From Candidatus Nomurabacteria bacterium (GTDB lineage Bacteria; Patescibacteriota; Minisyncoccia; Phycocordibacterales; UBA5272): a DNA stretch of 64,000 nucleotides. The translations under genes and the position numbers were made by a program. Positions 3,326 through 62,877 of the stretch are shown in pieces; position 1 is the first letter of the stretch, and every line of letters starts with the position of its first letter. The stretch lies in assembly GCA_040376695.1 (NCBI GenBank), contig JBEIQD010000002.1:14633-78632 (forward strand), given 5' to 3'. Under the pieces are notes generated by a model. That model was not told where the DNA came from. It did no database searches and was given only the letters and a program-made list of their open reading frames with translations.

Positions 3326-3739
3326 ATGCAGAAAATAATACGAAAAATCTTTTTCCTTGTATGTACGTTTGCGTGCATACTCTTCTCTGGGTGGCTGGCA
3401 TTTAAAAACTACCCTGAACTTGTATGGGGGTTGCCACTTCTGCCTGCGATTACTTTTTTCTTGTTTGCGTGCGTCGAAAAACAAAAACACACACCTCGAC
3501 AAAAGAGAGTTGAGCCAGAAATGTCTCCAGCAGAAGAAGTGAAAATGGCTGTTTTCAACTGTTTCCTTGGTTGTGTTGTGGTGGCAGTCATTATTTTGTG
3601 CACTACCCTTTGGTACTTTGGTTTCTTCTTTTGGGTTTGGAAAAACCTTCCACCGATTCTGCTTGCTTTGTTATTTTCTTGCGGGATTATTGGGGGAAGC
3701 CTTTCAGGTGGGTGGCGCTACAAGGAACCCCGACCCTAG
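3326..3739 (+). CDS. Hypothetical integral membrane protein (4 TM)
   Basis: 137 aa. SD aaggagag 7 nt upstream. Hydrophobic helices throughout. Confidence 0.5.
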   Translation: MQKIIRKIFFLVCTFACILFSGWLAFKNYPELVWGLPLLPAITFFLFACVEKQKHTPRQKRVEPEMSPAEEVKMAVFNCFLGCVVVAVIILCTTLWYFGFFFWVWKNLPPILLALLFSCGIIGGSLSGGWRYKEPRP

Positions 3740-5431: not shown

Positions 5432-6097
5432 ATGGATAAGCTCTGGGATATGCTGCAAGCGCATCTCCGTCCTATCTTTGGACGGAATGACATCTTGAAG
5501 ATGAAAGCTGTGTACATTTTTGCGGACAAAGCTCATTTGGGAGTATTCCGTGAAGATGGTTCGAAATATATCACGCACCCTGTGCAGTCGGTCATCATAG
5601 CCATAGAAGCAGGAGAACGAGACCTTGAAACATTAATGGCAATCTTACTTCATGATGTGTACGAAGAAACACAAGACAAGCGTTACCCAAAAAGGTTTGA
5701 GCATGTGCACAAACAATTTGGACAACTCGTTGCCTACCGCGTCCACATCATGACAAAGTATGACCATACTAAGGAGGGAAAGGTCATTTACTGGCGCGGG
5801 GTACGAACGTGTGCTGATCATGGTGTTAAAAAAGGAAAGCTAGCAGATCGCACTCACAACATCGAAACCTTGGAAGAAGTACCTGACCCTGGCCGAAGAA
5901 AAAGAAAACTCAAAGAAACCGTTAGTGAGTTCATTCCGATTCTCACGTGGCTTGCGAACGACATTGAAGTAAAATATTACAGTCTCGAGCTAGAGAGGCA
6001 AGCAGAGCGTGCGATCGTGCGAAATCTTTACCTGCGTCTTAAAAAGACAATGGAAGGTAAGTACCGCATACCGTTCGTGGTGCCTGAACTTGATTAG
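5432..6097 (+). CDS. HD-domain (p)ppGpp hydrolase-like protein (RelA/SpoT hydrolase domain only, small alarmone hydrolase type)
   Basis: YITHPVQSV...LMAILLHDVYEET and KLADRTHNIETL match the SpoT/Mesh1 HD hydrolase signature. Start taken at 5432 with SD taAGGAGaacttcc; the ORF-track N-extension from 5312 is rejected. Confidence 0.6.
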   Translation: MDKLWDMLQAHLRPIFGRNDILKMKAVYIFADKAHLGVFREDGSKYITHPVQSVIIAIEAGERDLETLMAILLHDVYEETQDKRYPKRFEHVHKQFGQLVAYRVHIMTKYDHTKEGKVIYWRGVRTCADHGVKKGKLADRTHNIETLEEVPDPGRRKRKLKETVSEFIPILTWLANDIEVKYYSLELERQAERAIVRNLYLRLKKTMEGKYRIPFVVPELD

Positions 6098-14080: not shown

Positions 14081-14959
14081 ATGGCGACAGAAACACGGTC
14101 TATAGGACCTGCAGCTAAAGACTTCATGCAAGCTGCACGAGCGCAAGCGGGAGGCCCTCCACCACCTGCCCCCAAAACACCACCTGCTTCATCTGGCAAC
14201 AGCGGAACAGGAGACGGTAACTCTGGCTCATCCGGAGGAACTGGTGGCGGGGGTGGAAAGAGTGGCGGGGGCGGTGAAAACCATCCTCCAAACCATGGAA
14301 AAAGTTCACAAGCCTCTGATGGCTTTAACCTGAAAATGGATGCTCGGCGATGGATTATTTTGCTCTTCATGGCCATTACCTCAGGCTGCATTGTGTACTA
14401 CACCATGTGGCGCACAACTCCTGCAGGGCAAAAAGTTCAAGCTCAAGAAAACAGCCTCGATGAACAGCGGATCAAACTTGCTCGAGACAAAGAACAAGTG
14501 AAGATGATGAGAATTGCAGCAAAAAGCGGTGCAAAGATGCCTGCGGTATCAAATGGGGCGTCAACATGTTTAACCCTCGCCGACTCTGCTGGAATTTCCC
14601 GCTCTACAGCCTTTGAGCTTTCCTTCGGACAGTGTGCCTCGTTTACAGCAACTGGAGCGCGGCAAACTTTTTGGGTTAACCTCAACAGCGCACCCAAAGA
14701 AATCAACGGCAAGGCGTCTTTCAACAACTTGCGCGAAGAACGAGCCGACGAGAAAATAGCCCGAAAGGAAAGGTGTCTCGCAAAAACCAATGACGCTGAA
14801 TTCTGTGAGAAGGAAATGCAAAGACAGCGAGGTGTACGCCTCGATGAAGGTTGTATTACCCAATCATCCCCTGACCTGTGTCTCGGTTACCTCAAAAACC
14901 GAACCAGCACCCCGCTCATCGTTCACACCGATGAGAGTATCAACATTGTCATGAACTGA
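14081..14959 (+). CDS. Hypothetical secreted or membrane protein with Gly/Pro-rich N-terminal region and Cys-rich C-terminal domain
   Basis: SD aaAGGAAGtgat. Low-complexity GGPPPPAPKTPP...GGTGGGGGKSGGGG, one TM helix, about 10 Cys in the C-terminal half. Local GC about 55%. Confidence 0.5.
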   Translation: MATETRSIGPAAKDFMQAARAQAGGPPPPAPKTPPASSGNSGTGDGNSGSSGGTGGGGGKSGGGGENHPPNHGKSSQASDGFNLKMDARRWIILLFMAITSGCIVYYTMWRTTPAGQKVQAQENSLDEQRIKLARDKEQVKMMRIAAKSGAKMPAVSNGASTCLTLADSAGISRSTAFELSFGQCASFTATGARQTFWVNLNSAPKEINGKASFNNLREERADEKIARKERCLAKTNDAEFCEKEMQRQRGVRLDEGCITQSSPDLCLGYLKNRTSTPLIVHTDESINIVMN

Positions 14960-25244: not shown

Positions 25245-25631
25245 ATGTGCACGCTCATGATTGATAACCAGTCCCGACTCATTGCCTGGACTGGCCAACA
25301 GGTCAACCTGAAAGCCGAAGACAAGAAAATGACGCGGACGCAAAAACGCCGTGCTCAACGCAAAAAAGCACAAACCAAAGCCGTCATGGCTGTCACACAG
25401 CACCCCAGCATCGCGCTGGACGAAGAAGTGACTTGCTTCACATCCTCGTCACGCGAGCCTTTCCGCTTCAATGGCCACCCCGCTTTTGAGCGCCAAGGAA
25501 CACGGGAGAAGTGCAGCGAACACAACCGCGGACGCAAGTCTGTCCACAAAGACCGCCGCTTCCGTGCGAACGGTTCTGGCAAAACACGCGCACCTCACAC
25601 CCACGTGTTGTCACACTCCGATGAGCTGTGA
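25245..25631 (+). CDS. Hypothetical basic protein in GC-rich islet
   Basis: SD cAAGGAGaagacagcATG. 128 aa, Lys/Arg-rich (TRTQKRRAQRKKAQTK). GC about 57%. Confidence 0.4.
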   Translation: MCTLMIDNQSRLIAWTGQQVNLKAEDKKMTRTQKRRAQRKKAQTKAVMAVTQHPSIALDEEVTCFTSSSREPFRFNGHPAFERQGTREKCSEHNRGRKSVHKDRRFRANGSGKTRAPHTHVLSHSDEL

Positions 25632-58707: not shown

Positions 58708-59175
58708 TTAATGAACAATTCTTCCAGGGCTCCCTCTTTTGAGTTTTACAGGATTTGCAAAACGATTGAGAACGTACCCAGGTAAAAGAAAACCCCTTCT
58801 GTTTCCTTCACAAACCACAAGCCAGTGCAGTTTGCCATTTTCATTGAAAACTTTGAGGACTGAAAATCTCAACCCTGTCTTGTTAATAAGGAAAATGAAG
58901 CTTTGTTTTGGGACAGTGAAATCAATAACCTTCCTGTCCCTTTCTCGGTAGCAATGAATGGGTGTCACATCAAGAAGATTGGTGTGTGTGGCGAGCGTCA
59001 AAAACTTTGGACACTCACTGAAGTGAATAATCGCCAAAGCTTCCAGTCTCTTAAGCCTCGCTTCGCCTTTCTTAACACCAATTACATGGTTTTTGAATTC
59101 ATACATAAGGATTCCTTTATAGTTGTATGGAAAGAAAATTCGCACAAGAAAATTTCGAGTGCGATACCATATCAT
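58708..59175 (-). CDS. Hypothetical protein
   Basis: 155 aa ORF. Start uncertain (59175 or MYEFKN at 59106). Confidence 0.35.
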   Translation of the reverse strand: MIWYRTRNFLVRIFFPYNYKGILMYEFKNHVIGVKKGEARLKRLEALAIIHFSECPKFLTLATHTNLLDVTPIHCYRERDRKVIDFTVPKQSFIFLINKTGLRFSVLKVFNENGKLHWLVVCEGNRRGFLLPGYVLNRFANPVKLKRGSPGRIVH

Positions 59176-59688: not shown

Positions 59689-59722
59689 ATATGTTAAGTG
59701 TATGCCTAATACGAGAAATATA

Positions 59723-59752
59723 AAATCCCCAGTTTTTAAAACTGGGGATTTT
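59723..59752 (-). terminator. Terminator downstream of tRNA-Ile
   Basis: aaaaTCCCCAGTTTttaAAACTGGGGAtttt. Confidence 0.55.
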
Positions 59753-59760
59753 ATATTTTG

Positions 59761-59835
59761 TGCGCGATCCTGGGATCGAACCAGGGACCTTTCGAGTATC
59801 AGTCGAATGCTCTAAACCAGCTGAGCTAATCGCGC
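59761..59835 (-). tRNA. tRNA-Ile (anticodon GAT)
   Basis: Reverse complement GCGCGATTAGCTCAGCTGGTTTAGAGCATTCGACTGATACTCGAAAGGTCCCTGGTTCGATCCCAGGATCGCGCA. CCA not encoded. TGtTAGTAT extended -10 lies 13 nt upstream. Confidence 0.9.
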
Positions 59836-59873
59836 ATATGTTACGAAATACTAACACAAATTTTGGAATATTT

Positions 59874-59906
59874 AAAGCCCGAGTCGCTTACGCGATCTCG
59901 GGCTTT
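59874..59906 (-). terminator. GC hairpin plus U-run terminator ending the small minus-strand ORF, about 40 nt upstream of tRNA-Ile
   Basis: aaaGCCCGAGtcgcttacgcgatCTCGGGCttt. Confidence 0.45.
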
Positions 59907-59912
59907 GGACCT

Positions 59913-60131
59913 TCATTTGAAGGTGATACCTGTGCCGTACTTGGCATCATGTGCATCCATTTTGGCACGCTGGTGAGCTTGGCCGAGGATCATGACGATC
60001 GCAACAGTAACAGCAATCAAGGCGGTGCCGACTTTTGACTTGGCAAAGGCTTTCGCTTTTTCCTTTGCTTTCTGAGCAAAGGCGTGAACCATTACACGGC
60101 GGTAATAGCGGGTTTGTTCGGCTGTTGGCAT
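59913..60131 (-). CDS. Small tail-anchored membrane protein in the GC-rich 16S/tRNA-Ile spacer islet
   Basis: MPTAEQTRYYRRVMVHAFAQKAKEKAKAFAKSKVGTALIAVTVAIVMILGQ... About 52% GC. Possible longer form starting at 60215. Confidence 0.35.
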   Translation of the reverse strand: MPTAEQTRYYRRVMVHAFAQKAKEKAKAFAKSKVGTALIAVTVAIVMILGQAHQRAKMDAHDAKYGTGITFK

Positions 60132-60302
60132 TGCCTCAACAGTACTTTGCAAAATGTGCAGTTTCAATTTGTCCAAGGATTTCTCCTGTAGTTGAATATG
60201 TATATAATATAACATATTTATTAATAAAAGTCAATAGCCTTGCCAAATCCCCTATTTTACTGTAGAAATAGACCATTGTTCATTACTATAAGGAATACTC
60301 AC

Positions 60303-60668
60303 ATGAGTACAACATGGTTTCTCTTCTGCGCTGATGCGCATTCAAATGAGGTCGTTGCAGGGACGCTTAACGGCCTTCAGGCCAGCCCTGAAATCGCCAA
60401 AGAACATGAATGTTCTGATGGGAAAAAGCGGTACCTCTACGAAGTGCCCGACTATGCTTTTGCTTCTCGTTTGCACAAGTCACAGAAACAGCTCAAAGCC
60501 ACCCTCACCATCTTCCGCAGCCAAGACGGCGGCAAACCTGCCGAGTGGAAGTTCTCCCAAAAGAAAAAGGTTTCCTTGGGGAGCATTCAGAAAAAAAGCG
60601 ACCAGCTGAAAGCAAAACCAGCTACAGCAATACACCAACGAAAACCATCTCAAAAACTTCCGTTTTAG
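60303..60668 (+). CDS. Hypothetical basic protein, divergent from the 59913 ORF, in the GC-rich spacer islet
   Basis: SD ataAGGAAtactcacATG. 121 aa, MSTTWFLFCADAHSNEV...; terminator follows. Confidence 0.4.
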   Translation: MSTTWFLFCADAHSNEVVAGTLNGLQASPEIAKEHECSDGKKRYLYEVPDYAFASRLHKSQKQLKATLTIFRSQDGGKPAEWKFSQKKKVSLGSIQKKSDQLKAKPATAIHQRKPSQKLPF

Positions 60669-60684
60669 AACTCTCTGGAACGGA

Positions 60685-60718
60685 GAAAGCCCGGTCGCAA
60701 TATGCGCCGGGCTTTTTT
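60685..60718 (+). terminator. Rho-independent terminator
   Basis: aaAGCCCGGtcgcaatatgcgCCGGGCTttttttt. Confidence 0.55.
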
Positions 60719-60876
60719 TCATTCAAAATGAAAAGCGTAGATGAATCCCCCTTTACAGAGAGACTCGCTACACTTTCCATTTTTACATTACAGAATGAAG
60801 AGCTTAATGATTCCAATTACCCGAAAGTAACTGAAATCATTAAACTATCCATTACACACATTGTGATTTTTATCTT

Positions 60877-60892
60877 TCTTTTGTCACACTCT
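60877..60892. repeat. 3' arm of the 16S processing stem (perfect 16 nt complement of 62667-62682)
   Basis: CTTTTGTCACACTCTA here versus TAGAGTGTGACAAAAG at 62667-62682. Flanks extend the complementarity to about 25 nt. Confidence 0.6.
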
Positions 60893-61019
60893 AGCGCTTG
60901 CGCGACTTTTGCATACGTTTCGCTGTAGCGCGAACAGTGTTAAAGGATCACTGTTAAGTCCTTATCTAAAACTTAAATAACCGACAAGATTCGTACACCC
61001 TAATAAATTAGGTATGTAG

Positions 61020-62660
<1,641 letters not shown>

Positions 62661-62666
62661 ATTTAA

Positions 62667-62682
62667 TAGAGTGTGACAAAAG
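62667..62682. repeat. 5' arm of the 16S processing stem
   Basis: TAGAGTGTGACAAAAG, 6 nt upstream of the mature 16S 5' end. Confidence 0.6.
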
Positions 62683-62848
62683 AAAAACAAAAAAATGCAC
62701 AATGTGTGTAATGTATGAAGCGTCACCAGAAAACGTTGTTATGTCATTGAGACCTTATCAGACTCTCCGACCGTTTCCTGTAGCTTCTATTTCATTTTCA
62801 AATGACTACGATAACCACTCACATATTTCTACCTGAGAAGTGACCCCC

Positions 62849-62877
62849 ATTCTATACAAAAAATAATTGAAAGTCAA
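62849..62877 (-). promoter_or_regulatory. Candidate rRNA promoter
   Basis: Minus strand TTGACT-17 nt-TAGAAT (plus coordinates 62877-62872 and 62854-62849), about 180 nt upstream of the 16S 5' end. Confidence 0.35.

Follow-up and report, generated by a model that had tools for sequence, protein, structure and literature searches.

A 16S rRNA–tRNA-Ile locus split by two divergent small genes: probably the inherited layout in a Parcubacteria-like bacterium

The canonical bacterial rRNA (rrn) operon runs 16S, tRNA-Ile/tRNA-Ala, 23S and 5S from one promoter, with RNase III stems; tRNA-Ile(GAU) is the usual spacer tRNA, and a leader-trailer helix around 16S is the classical arrangement for excision of 16S by itself. 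In Patescibacteria the 16S and 23S genes are commonly unlinked (Brewer et al., bioRxiv 10.1101/705046), and in the Candidate Phyla Radiation (CPR) 27 of 34 closed genomes have unlinked genes, some with genes in between that lie on the other strand (Lui et al. 2021, PMC8172020). In a subgroup of Parcubacteria the anti-Shine-Dalgarno motif has been lost (Tsurumaki et al. 2022, PMC9297842). The locus analysed here lies on contig JBEIQD010000002.1 (assembly GCA_040376695.1, Candidatus Nomurabacteria bacterium), in a stretch of 64,000 nucleotides (nt) that we call the window. In it, 16S and tRNA-Ile(GAU), both on the minus strand, are separated by a 1194-nt spacer holding two divergent open reading frames (ORFs): ORF-B, which is convergent to 16S, and ORF-A, which would encode a small membrane protein and lies next to the tRNA.

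We consider it likely, at a probability of roughly 0.72, that this is a fragmented rRNA locus in its inherited, normal layout, from a CPR bacterium of Parcubacteria/Paceibacteria-like type, with no insertion and with four transcription units. The split operon is a further instance of an arrangement already documented in this radiation. The features of the locus, ordered by unit, are as follows.

61030..62667, minus strand: 16S rRNA gene (Rfam RF00177, 1309.6 bits, model positions 1-1533, full-length bacterial)
62849..62877, minus strand: promoter-like site upstream of 16S, TTGACT-17-TAGAAT (consensus scan, 10 of 12 matches; putative function)
62668..62713, minus strand: leader strand of a long leader-trailer processing helix, abutting the 16S 5′ end (duplex energy)
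60850..60893, minus strand: trailer-side strand of the processing helix, with a core TTTTGTCACACTCTAGC that is invariant in all relatives (duplex and alignment)
60934..60956, minus strand: conserved trailer hairpin with loop AUCCUUUAA (consensus fold, two covarying pairs; GAUCC invariant in the loop)
60795..60852, minus strand: trailer hairpin of about 27 bp with a UUCG loop, outside the processing helix (-27.5 kcal/mol, z -10.4)
60682..60719, both strands: bidirectional terminator hairpin common to ORF-B and the 16S unit (z about -4.3 to -4.5; kept in relatives)
60303..60668, plus strand: ORF-B, 121 amino acids (aa), isoelectric point (pI) 9.8, convergent to 16S (ORF listing, homologues, ratio of nonsynonymous to synonymous substitution [dN/dS], AlphaFold2)
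60240..60269, plus strand: promoter-like block of ORF-B, TTGCCA-N17-TAGAAAT (alignment of relatives; not called by the consensus scan; putative function)
60206..60234, minus strand: promoter-like site of ORF-A, TTGACT-17-TATATT with an upstream TG (consensus scan)
59913..60176, minus strand: ORF-A, small basic single-pass membrane protein (ORF listing; hydrophobic segment score 2.17)
59874..59906, minus strand: hairpin 3′ of ORF-A with a GNRA-type loop and a weak U tract (-24.6 kcal/mol, z -5.2; identical in relative contig L001)
59848..59856, minus strand: extended -10 element TGtTAGTAT, 12 nt before tRNA-Ile (conservation)
59760..59835, minus strand: tRNA-Ile(GAU) (ARAGORN; Rfam, 69.3 bits)
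59716..59758, minus strand: terminator hairpin 3′ of tRNA-Ile (perfect 21-nt inverted repeat, then a U-rich run)

The window extends 61 kb downstream of 16S and 1.3 kb upstream of it, and no 23S or 5S match occurs anywhere in it (Rfam), that is, none within 61 kb downstream of 16S. By the definition of Brewer et al., which asks for more than 1500 bp from 16S to the nearest 23S or for separate transcripts, the rRNA genes here are unlinked. The likeness to the canonical operon lies in a leader-trailer helix that brackets 16S and in a tRNA-Ile(GAU) downstream on the same strand. Judged from sequence, this is not a canonical rrn operon, because 23S and 5S are missing, a bidirectional terminator and the convergent ORF-B lie between 16S and the tRNA, and the tRNA has a separate promoter-like element as well as its own terminator. 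The closer likeness is to the unlinked genes of the CPR: here too 16S is not followed by 23S, the trait is clade-wide, and the intervening genes include one on the opposite strand, so that a single 16S-23S-5S transcript is ruled out. The locus differs from those descriptions in that tRNA-Ile(GAU) stays 1.2 kb from 16S with its own promoter, and in that a specific conserved pair of small protein genes lies between the two RNA genes. No description of the 16S/tRNA-Ile gene pair or of the ORF-B family was found in the cited literature on CPR rRNA genes.

In the layout that we favour, the 16S unit would be transcribed from its own promoter and 16S cut out by way of a leader-trailer helix; its trailer would be a strongly conserved, structured stretch of 330 nt ending at the bidirectional terminator. 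The second unit would be ORF-B, transcribed towards 16S and ending at the same terminator, and the third ORF-A, expressed from a back-to-back promoter, with a sequence that turns over or is replaced very fast. The fourth would be tRNA-Ile, served by the TGnTAGTAT promoter usual in this genome and by its own terminator, and 23S would be located elsewhere in the genome. All promoters and terminators of the locus are assigned their functions from sequence and conservation only. The helix itself is about 45 bp long, and its leader-trailer duplex scores -58.7 kcal/mol, as against -33.8±4.4 with shuffled trailers. The shared hairpin at 60682-60719 reads on the plus strand, with -25.0 kcal/mol and a following U7, as a strong ORF-B terminator, and on the minus strand, with -21.4 kcal/mol and UUUCUCC after it, as a weaker stop for the 16S unit. 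Sub-threshold Rfam candidates such as Leu_leader (32 bits, 60684-60786) and ohsC/NsiR1 over the tRNA terminator overlie terminator-like hairpins and were rejected. The extended -10 element TGnTAGTAT is kept before tRNA-Ile in L001, L002 and L007; the same element precedes tRNA-Glu in the window, and a variant, TGgTATAGT, precedes tRNA-Val.

Much of this architecture had been read from the letters by a model that ran no database searches (the sequence-only reading), and most of its anatomy holds up: the operon split by a 1194-nt spacer with a terminator and an opposite-strand gene, the missing 23S and 5S, the TTGACT..TATATT promoter between the ORFs (present at 60234..60206 and conserved, on the ORF-A side), separate terminators after both ORFs (stable hairpins, each with z < -4), a tRNA-Ile with its own TGtTAGTAT element and downstream terminator, and a basic ORF-B of 121 aa. 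That the two ORFs are real and divergent is borne out by back-to-back promoters, by an ORF-B dN/dS of 0.04-0.10 and by a slot that is kept in relatives.

The comparative evidence is what carries the argument for inheritance. The order 16S, convergent ORF-B, divergent small membrane ORF, tRNA-Ile recurs among at least 10 relatives whose ORF-B is 41-88% identical to ours, and the rRNA linkage of this ORF-B subfamily spans lineages in which ORF-B is only about 41-50% identical. Contig L001 carries the small ORF, ORF-B and 16S in order, and L002 a DUF1761 gene, an extra ORF, tRNA-Ile, the small ORF and ORF-B in order; L004, L005/L006, L007, L023 and L024 show the same layout. The 16S 3′ end, with its trailer, stands directly beside the convergent ORF-B in L001, L024, L006, L007 and L042; on the other side tRNA-Ile(GAT) is found in L002, L009 and L010 (L007 has a tRNA match that is cut off), and no 23S follows tRNA-Ile in L002, L009 or L010. 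The unlinked trait is thus shared across the clade. The closest named homologues of cmk come from Paceibacterota and Nomurabacteria, and our reading of the taxon rests on the named homologues of this one protein.

The 16S trailer behaves as a constrained RNA. A trailer that is 99.4% identical stands beside an ORF-B that is 80% identical, and the trailer remains conserved, with compensatory changes, even where ORF-B is only 52-60% identical. Recombination, as a first reading of the contrast between trailer and ORF-B, is weakened by this conservation in distant relatives, and most of the contrast is explained by the structural constraint on pre-rRNA. The UUCG-capped hairpin shows compensatory changes in 6 of 27 pairs across the closer relatives and is absent from L002 and L007. 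The 16S gene is 99.8% identical to that of L001 and contains, at about 61393-61525, some 105-130 nt of inserted sequence, which takes the place of model positions about 1120-1160 and holds no ORF of at least 60 aa (ORF listing); insertions of this kind are typical for CPR rRNA genes. The 16S 3′ end and trailer of L042 are of the same type as those of the window. The loop AUCCUUUAA of the hairpin at 60934-60956 contains a UCCUU that is complementary to AAGGA.

On the sequence evidence, ORF-B is a true gene of an unannotated, CPR-specific family of small proteins. Against its three closest relatives its synonymous sites are saturated (proportion of synonymous differences, pS, 0.61-0.73) with dN 0.07-0.10 and dN/dS 0.04-0.10, and the gene is therefore long resident and under selection. 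A word-indexed search returned ten clusters, which are 52-100% identical and share 23 invariant columns, and a profile search of 1.84 billion representatives returned 193 clusters at E<=1e-3, 26 of them at E<=1e-10; all the profile matches listed are 70-150 aa long. The check for homologues that had been proposed with the sequence-only reading was thus productive for ORF-B but not for ORF-A, which matched only itself. Members are named “hypothetical protein” in their sources, for example from Candidatus Falkowbacteria. ORF-B itself has no Pfam, PHROG, NCBIfam or PADLOC match at E<=0.001 and no PDB sequence match, and the same holds for the clusters of the family. ORF-B carries the family motif (about 100-125 aa; W[FY]x4-5 D[AS]H[ST]NE[VI], C-x-D-G-x2-R, basic tail) and reaches 147 bits (E 2e-44) with the family profile, whose alignment includes ORF-B itself. 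Many members end in an aromatic residue past the basic tail (...LPF, ...ALF, ...LRY, ...TRF, ...MPF; alignments A1 and A3), an ending that may be a docking motif.

Loci of the family in representative genomes of the Genome Taxonomy Database and in metagenomes were found with a degenerate, hand-made DNA motif, and of the 15 loci from genomes 14 proved to be true family members, as did 16 of the 32 from metagenomes; when the close alignment A1 was used to scan for related loci, neither the genome nor the metagenome collections yielded a relative. Searching contigs for exact copies of ORF-A and ORF-B of the window, with both start variants, gave no match. The genome loci come mostly from Patescibacteria, Saccharibacteria or Falkowbacteria records, and the family is almost confined to Patescibacteria. 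The best-scoring loci from the motif, L009, L010 and L042, lie at contig ends next to tRNA-Ile(GAT) or the 16S 3′ end, and most others lie among housekeeping genes (asnS-like, greA-like and dnaG-like, read from sequence). Most of the distant loci have no rRNA or tRNA-Ile nearby, and the distant members mostly lack a divergent partner and have no fixed one. In L010 (785-1201) and L042 (900-1349) ORF-B is immediately preceded, on its own strand, by an extra conserved ORF of 138-149 aa that overlaps the ORF-B start.

The AlphaFold2 model of ORF-B, built on a 45-sequence alignment, has a mean predicted local distance difference test score of 82, and of about 90 over most of residues 1-85, which are confidently predicted to form a ferredoxin-like domain. 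The order is beta-alpha-beta-beta-alpha-beta plus a short fifth strand, followed by a C-terminal helix and a Lys/Arg-rich basic tail; the structure matches are weak and generic ferredoxin-like. The conserved D-x-H-[ST]-N-E (D11, H13, [ST]14, N15, E16) falls where strand 1 meets helix 1, and C37, D39, G40 and R43 fall in the hairpin between strands 2 and 3. From the fold topology the two groups should lie on the same sheet edge, which suggests a ligand- or metal-binding site. Small ferredoxin-like domains such as HMA/Atx1, ACT and the UreE C-domain share this secondary-structure order with ORF-B, which also has a polar motif at the strand 1-helix 1 junction; HMA and ACT domains bind ligands at that junction.

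ORF-A presents a different picture. Its start could be ATG 60131 (72 aa), TTG 60176 (87 aa) or ATG 60215 (100 aa, the form in public databases), and TTG 60176 is most likely because it is homologous to the ATG of relatives and has a GGAG-N6/7-start pattern. The product had been described as a tail-anchored membrane protein of 72 aa; a single-pass membrane protein it is, but not strictly a tail-anchored one, since in the 72-aa form the membrane segment (residues 34-52) is followed by about 20 polar residues, and the longer start is preferred. The slot is filled in 10 of 10 relatives by an ORF of 65-110 aa in the same orientation with one hydrophobic segment (two in L007, and a weak one, 1.07, in L005), and these versions are mostly unrelated in sequence. 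The intergenic gap of 126-171 nt between ORF-A and ORF-B holds two promoters, whose -35 elements (TTGACT, 60234..60229, minus strand; TTGCCA, 60240-60245, plus strand) stand back to back, 5 nt apart; the GTCAATA core of the ORF-A site is conserved in all relatives. ORF-A is probably a real gene for a very fast-evolving or exchanged small membrane protein, and the signs of exchange appear confined to its coding segment.

On composition and leaders the sequence-only reading needs qualification. It had described a GC-rich insert of 50-55%; the two ORFs alone are raised, as the following values of GC and of GC at third codon positions (GC3) show, but the whole spacer is 42.7% GC, in a window of 41.1%. 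The anomaly is genuine, though it falls short of the one described.

ORF-A: GC 0.502, GC3 0.521
ORF-B: GC 0.484, GC3 0.516
56 long ORFs of the window: GC 0.411±0.034, GC3 0.333±0.063

High GC3 as a general mark of highly expressed genes is not borne out as an explanation, the genes for S1 (0.376) and GAPDH (0.274) being within about one standard deviation of the mean, as against 0.52 here. The two ORFs had also been called Shine-Dalgarno-led. The motifs are present and conserved in all relatives, GGAG(G) 6-9 nt before the ORF-A start and AAGGA 6-9 nt before the ORF-B ATG, but the 16S 3′ tail reads UGGAUUAAUUCAAUG and not the consensus GGAUCACCUCCUU (61030-61050; also in L006, L007, L024 and L042), so that the CCUCC anti-Shine-Dalgarno sequence is absent from the 16S 3′ end, and upstream of the long ORFs of the window Shine-Dalgarno-like motifs are at background (7 of 62, against 11%). 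In many genes of the window a TATACT-type box stands 6-10 nt ahead of the ATG, and such closeness suggests that leaderless mRNAs are widespread among them. The missing CCUCC and the closest named cmk homologues resemble what is reported for the Parcubacteria subgroup (PMC9297842), from which the present case differs in that both spacer genes keep a conserved GGAG/AAGGA; that paper does not treat this locus. As a long shot, the small class of GC3-rich genes with such leaders, ORF-A and ORF-B among them, might be recognised, by ribosomes that lack the anti-Shine-Dalgarno sequence, through the conserved UCCUU-bearing loop in the 16S 3′ trailer.

Several points weigh against a plainly inherited layout. 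The GC3 of ORF-A and ORF-B is about 2.9 standard deviations above the window mean, and the two belong to a minority class of genes with AAGGAG/GGAG-type leaders and high GC3 (0.44-0.64 against 0.33) that also includes 3326-3739, 5432-6097, 14081-14959 and 25245-25631. The association of leader and GC3 in this class has a Mann-Whitney p of 0.0015, on noisy start calls; of the four further members three have no Pfam match and 5432-6097 has an HD domain. A search of 5.8 billion proteins returned for ORF-A only ORF-A itself, and the window version cannot be aligned with those of the closest relatives, L023 and L001, so that part of the locus was not simply inherited. Finally, most of the relative contigs are 1-3 kb long, none spans 16S, both ORFs and tRNA-Ile, and metagenome contigs with 16S can be chimeric.

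How far do these points favour other explanations? The sequence-only reading had proposed a foreign two-gene cassette, possibly toxin-antitoxin-like, inserted into the spacer. As a recently acquired toxin-antitoxin or defence pair between 16S and tRNA-Ile, this is largely refuted and in our judgment very improbable, although it would account for the raised GC and GC3 of both ORFs, for their Shine-Dalgarno-like leaders in a genome mostly without them, for the orphan status of ORF-A and for a site adjoining a tRNA gene. At least 10 relatives, with ORF-B identities as low as 41-60%, have the same layout, and the slot is occupied in every relative retrieved, with no presence/absence polymorphism. 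Because the synonymous sites of ORF-B are saturated among relatives, the raised GC3 reflects present-day forces at the locus, an equilibrium, and not the signature of a donor. Elsewhere the family, which is Patescibacteria-wide, matches its hosts in composition and sits amid housekeeping genes with no fixed partner. No direct repeats flank the pair (the only inverted repeats are the hairpins), the spacer contains no integrase-like or transposase-like ORF, and searches for phage, plasmid or viral relatives found none. It had been held that related genomes with the same spacer content and host-like composition would count against a cassette; the layout is shared, but the two window ORFs are atypical in composition. 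The toxin-antitoxin version fares no better. Toxin-antitoxin operons are co-directional. Type II modules, with co-directional and usually overlapping genes, resemble the pair in being two small adjacent genes, one of them basic; here the two lie on opposite strands, ORF-A minus and ORF-B plus, neither matches a toxin-antitoxin or defence family (Pfam, PHROGs, NCBIfam and PADLOC, E<=0.001), one of the two is a membrane protein whose versions are not homologous, and ORF-B stands alone beside housekeeping genes elsewhere.

The most credible of the other proposals adds to the inherited layout and does not replace it. The slot of ORF-A, and perhaps the segment with both ORFs as a whole, would be a recombination hot spot, working through the conserved flanks (terminator hairpin, promoter block and rRNA trailer) and yielding a hypervariable membrane protein; we hold this to be possible, though short of probable. 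While ORF-A cannot be aligned with its counterparts in L023 and L001, the flanking hairpin, promoter block and trailer are 93-99% identical, with breaks at the start codon and just past the stop; the L001 and L023 versions, of one type, are only 55% identical (dN/dS about 0.2); and the nearest ORF-B relatives reach 83-88% identity against 92-98.7% for 12 relatives of cmk. The last comparison joins contigs that cannot be linked to the same organisms, and the weak resemblance between ORF-A and its counterpart in L005, a more distant relative (E 4e-4), covers little sequence (10 of 28 residues, some of it in a membrane segment) and may be convergent. Very fast divergence between conserved regulatory flanks would give the same picture, and with the trailer structurally constrained even in distant relatives, flank identity is no proof of recombination. 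It is much less likely that ORF-A is no protein gene at all and that 59874-60176 is a structured 5′ leader or precursor of tRNA-Ile, or a small RNA, with an ORF by chance. An orphan sequence, short, without family matches and with a strong hairpin at its 3′ end, is what this would predict, yet all 10 relatives keep an ORF of the same size class with at least one hydrophobic stretch despite unrelated sequences, the GGAG(G) motif and promoter are conserved, L001 and L023 show the low dN/dS just given, GC3 exceeds GC2 (GC at second codon positions), no Rfam match falls there, and tRNA-Ile has its own conserved promoter. Only slightly better placed, and still improbable, is the idea that ORF-B is a small DNA-binding regulator of the shared divergent promoter region, controlling itself and ORF-A. 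The back-to-back -35 elements in a conserved block, the basic protein of pI 9.8 and the constant pairing with a divergent small membrane ORF in the rRNA-linked subfamily would fit; against it, the fold matches are generic ferredoxin-like, with no helix-turn-helix, ribbon-helix-helix or other known DNA-binding fold, most family members elsewhere lie inside strings of housekeeping genes without a divergent partner, and the two promoters themselves account for the conserved intergenic block.

L002 has a different, unrelated ORF of 155 aa (332-799) inserted between the DUF1761 gene and tRNA-Ile, and the window has its own 155-aa ORF at 58708-59175, without a Pfam match, on the far side of its DUF1761 gene. 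The neighbourhood of tRNA-Ile seems prone to the gain of small genes.

Under the inherited, four-unit layout, the roles of the two proteins can be suggested only tentatively. ORF-B could be a nucleic-acid- or ribosome-associated protein that binds a ligand or metal, its expression perhaps coupled to rRNA transcription through convergence, with ORF-A perhaps a co-regulated, fast-evolving envelope protein; taken jointly, these propositions are rather unlikely to hold in full. The context that bears on a ribosome link is the basic tail, the 16S neighbourhood in one subfamily and the asnS/greA/dnaG neighbourhoods in others; ORF-B matched no known ribosomal protein family. A more specific version is a long shot: ORF-B as a CPR-specific factor binding the ribosome or pre-rRNA, its gene fixed opposed to 16S in one Parcubacteria clade and tuned by antisense read-through from a very strong rRNA promoter, and ORF-A as a hypervariable envelope protein exchanged between lineages.

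The locus is no new kind of genetic system, the split operon having already been described for the group. What it offers is a record, at base-pair resolution, of an rRNA operon broken into separate units in one CPR clade, with tRNA-Ile kept close. The ORF-B family is moderately large, unannotated and specific to the radiation, with one subfamily tied to the rRNA locus, and it would be a reasonable candidate in the search for lineage-specific translation or ribosome-biogenesis factors.

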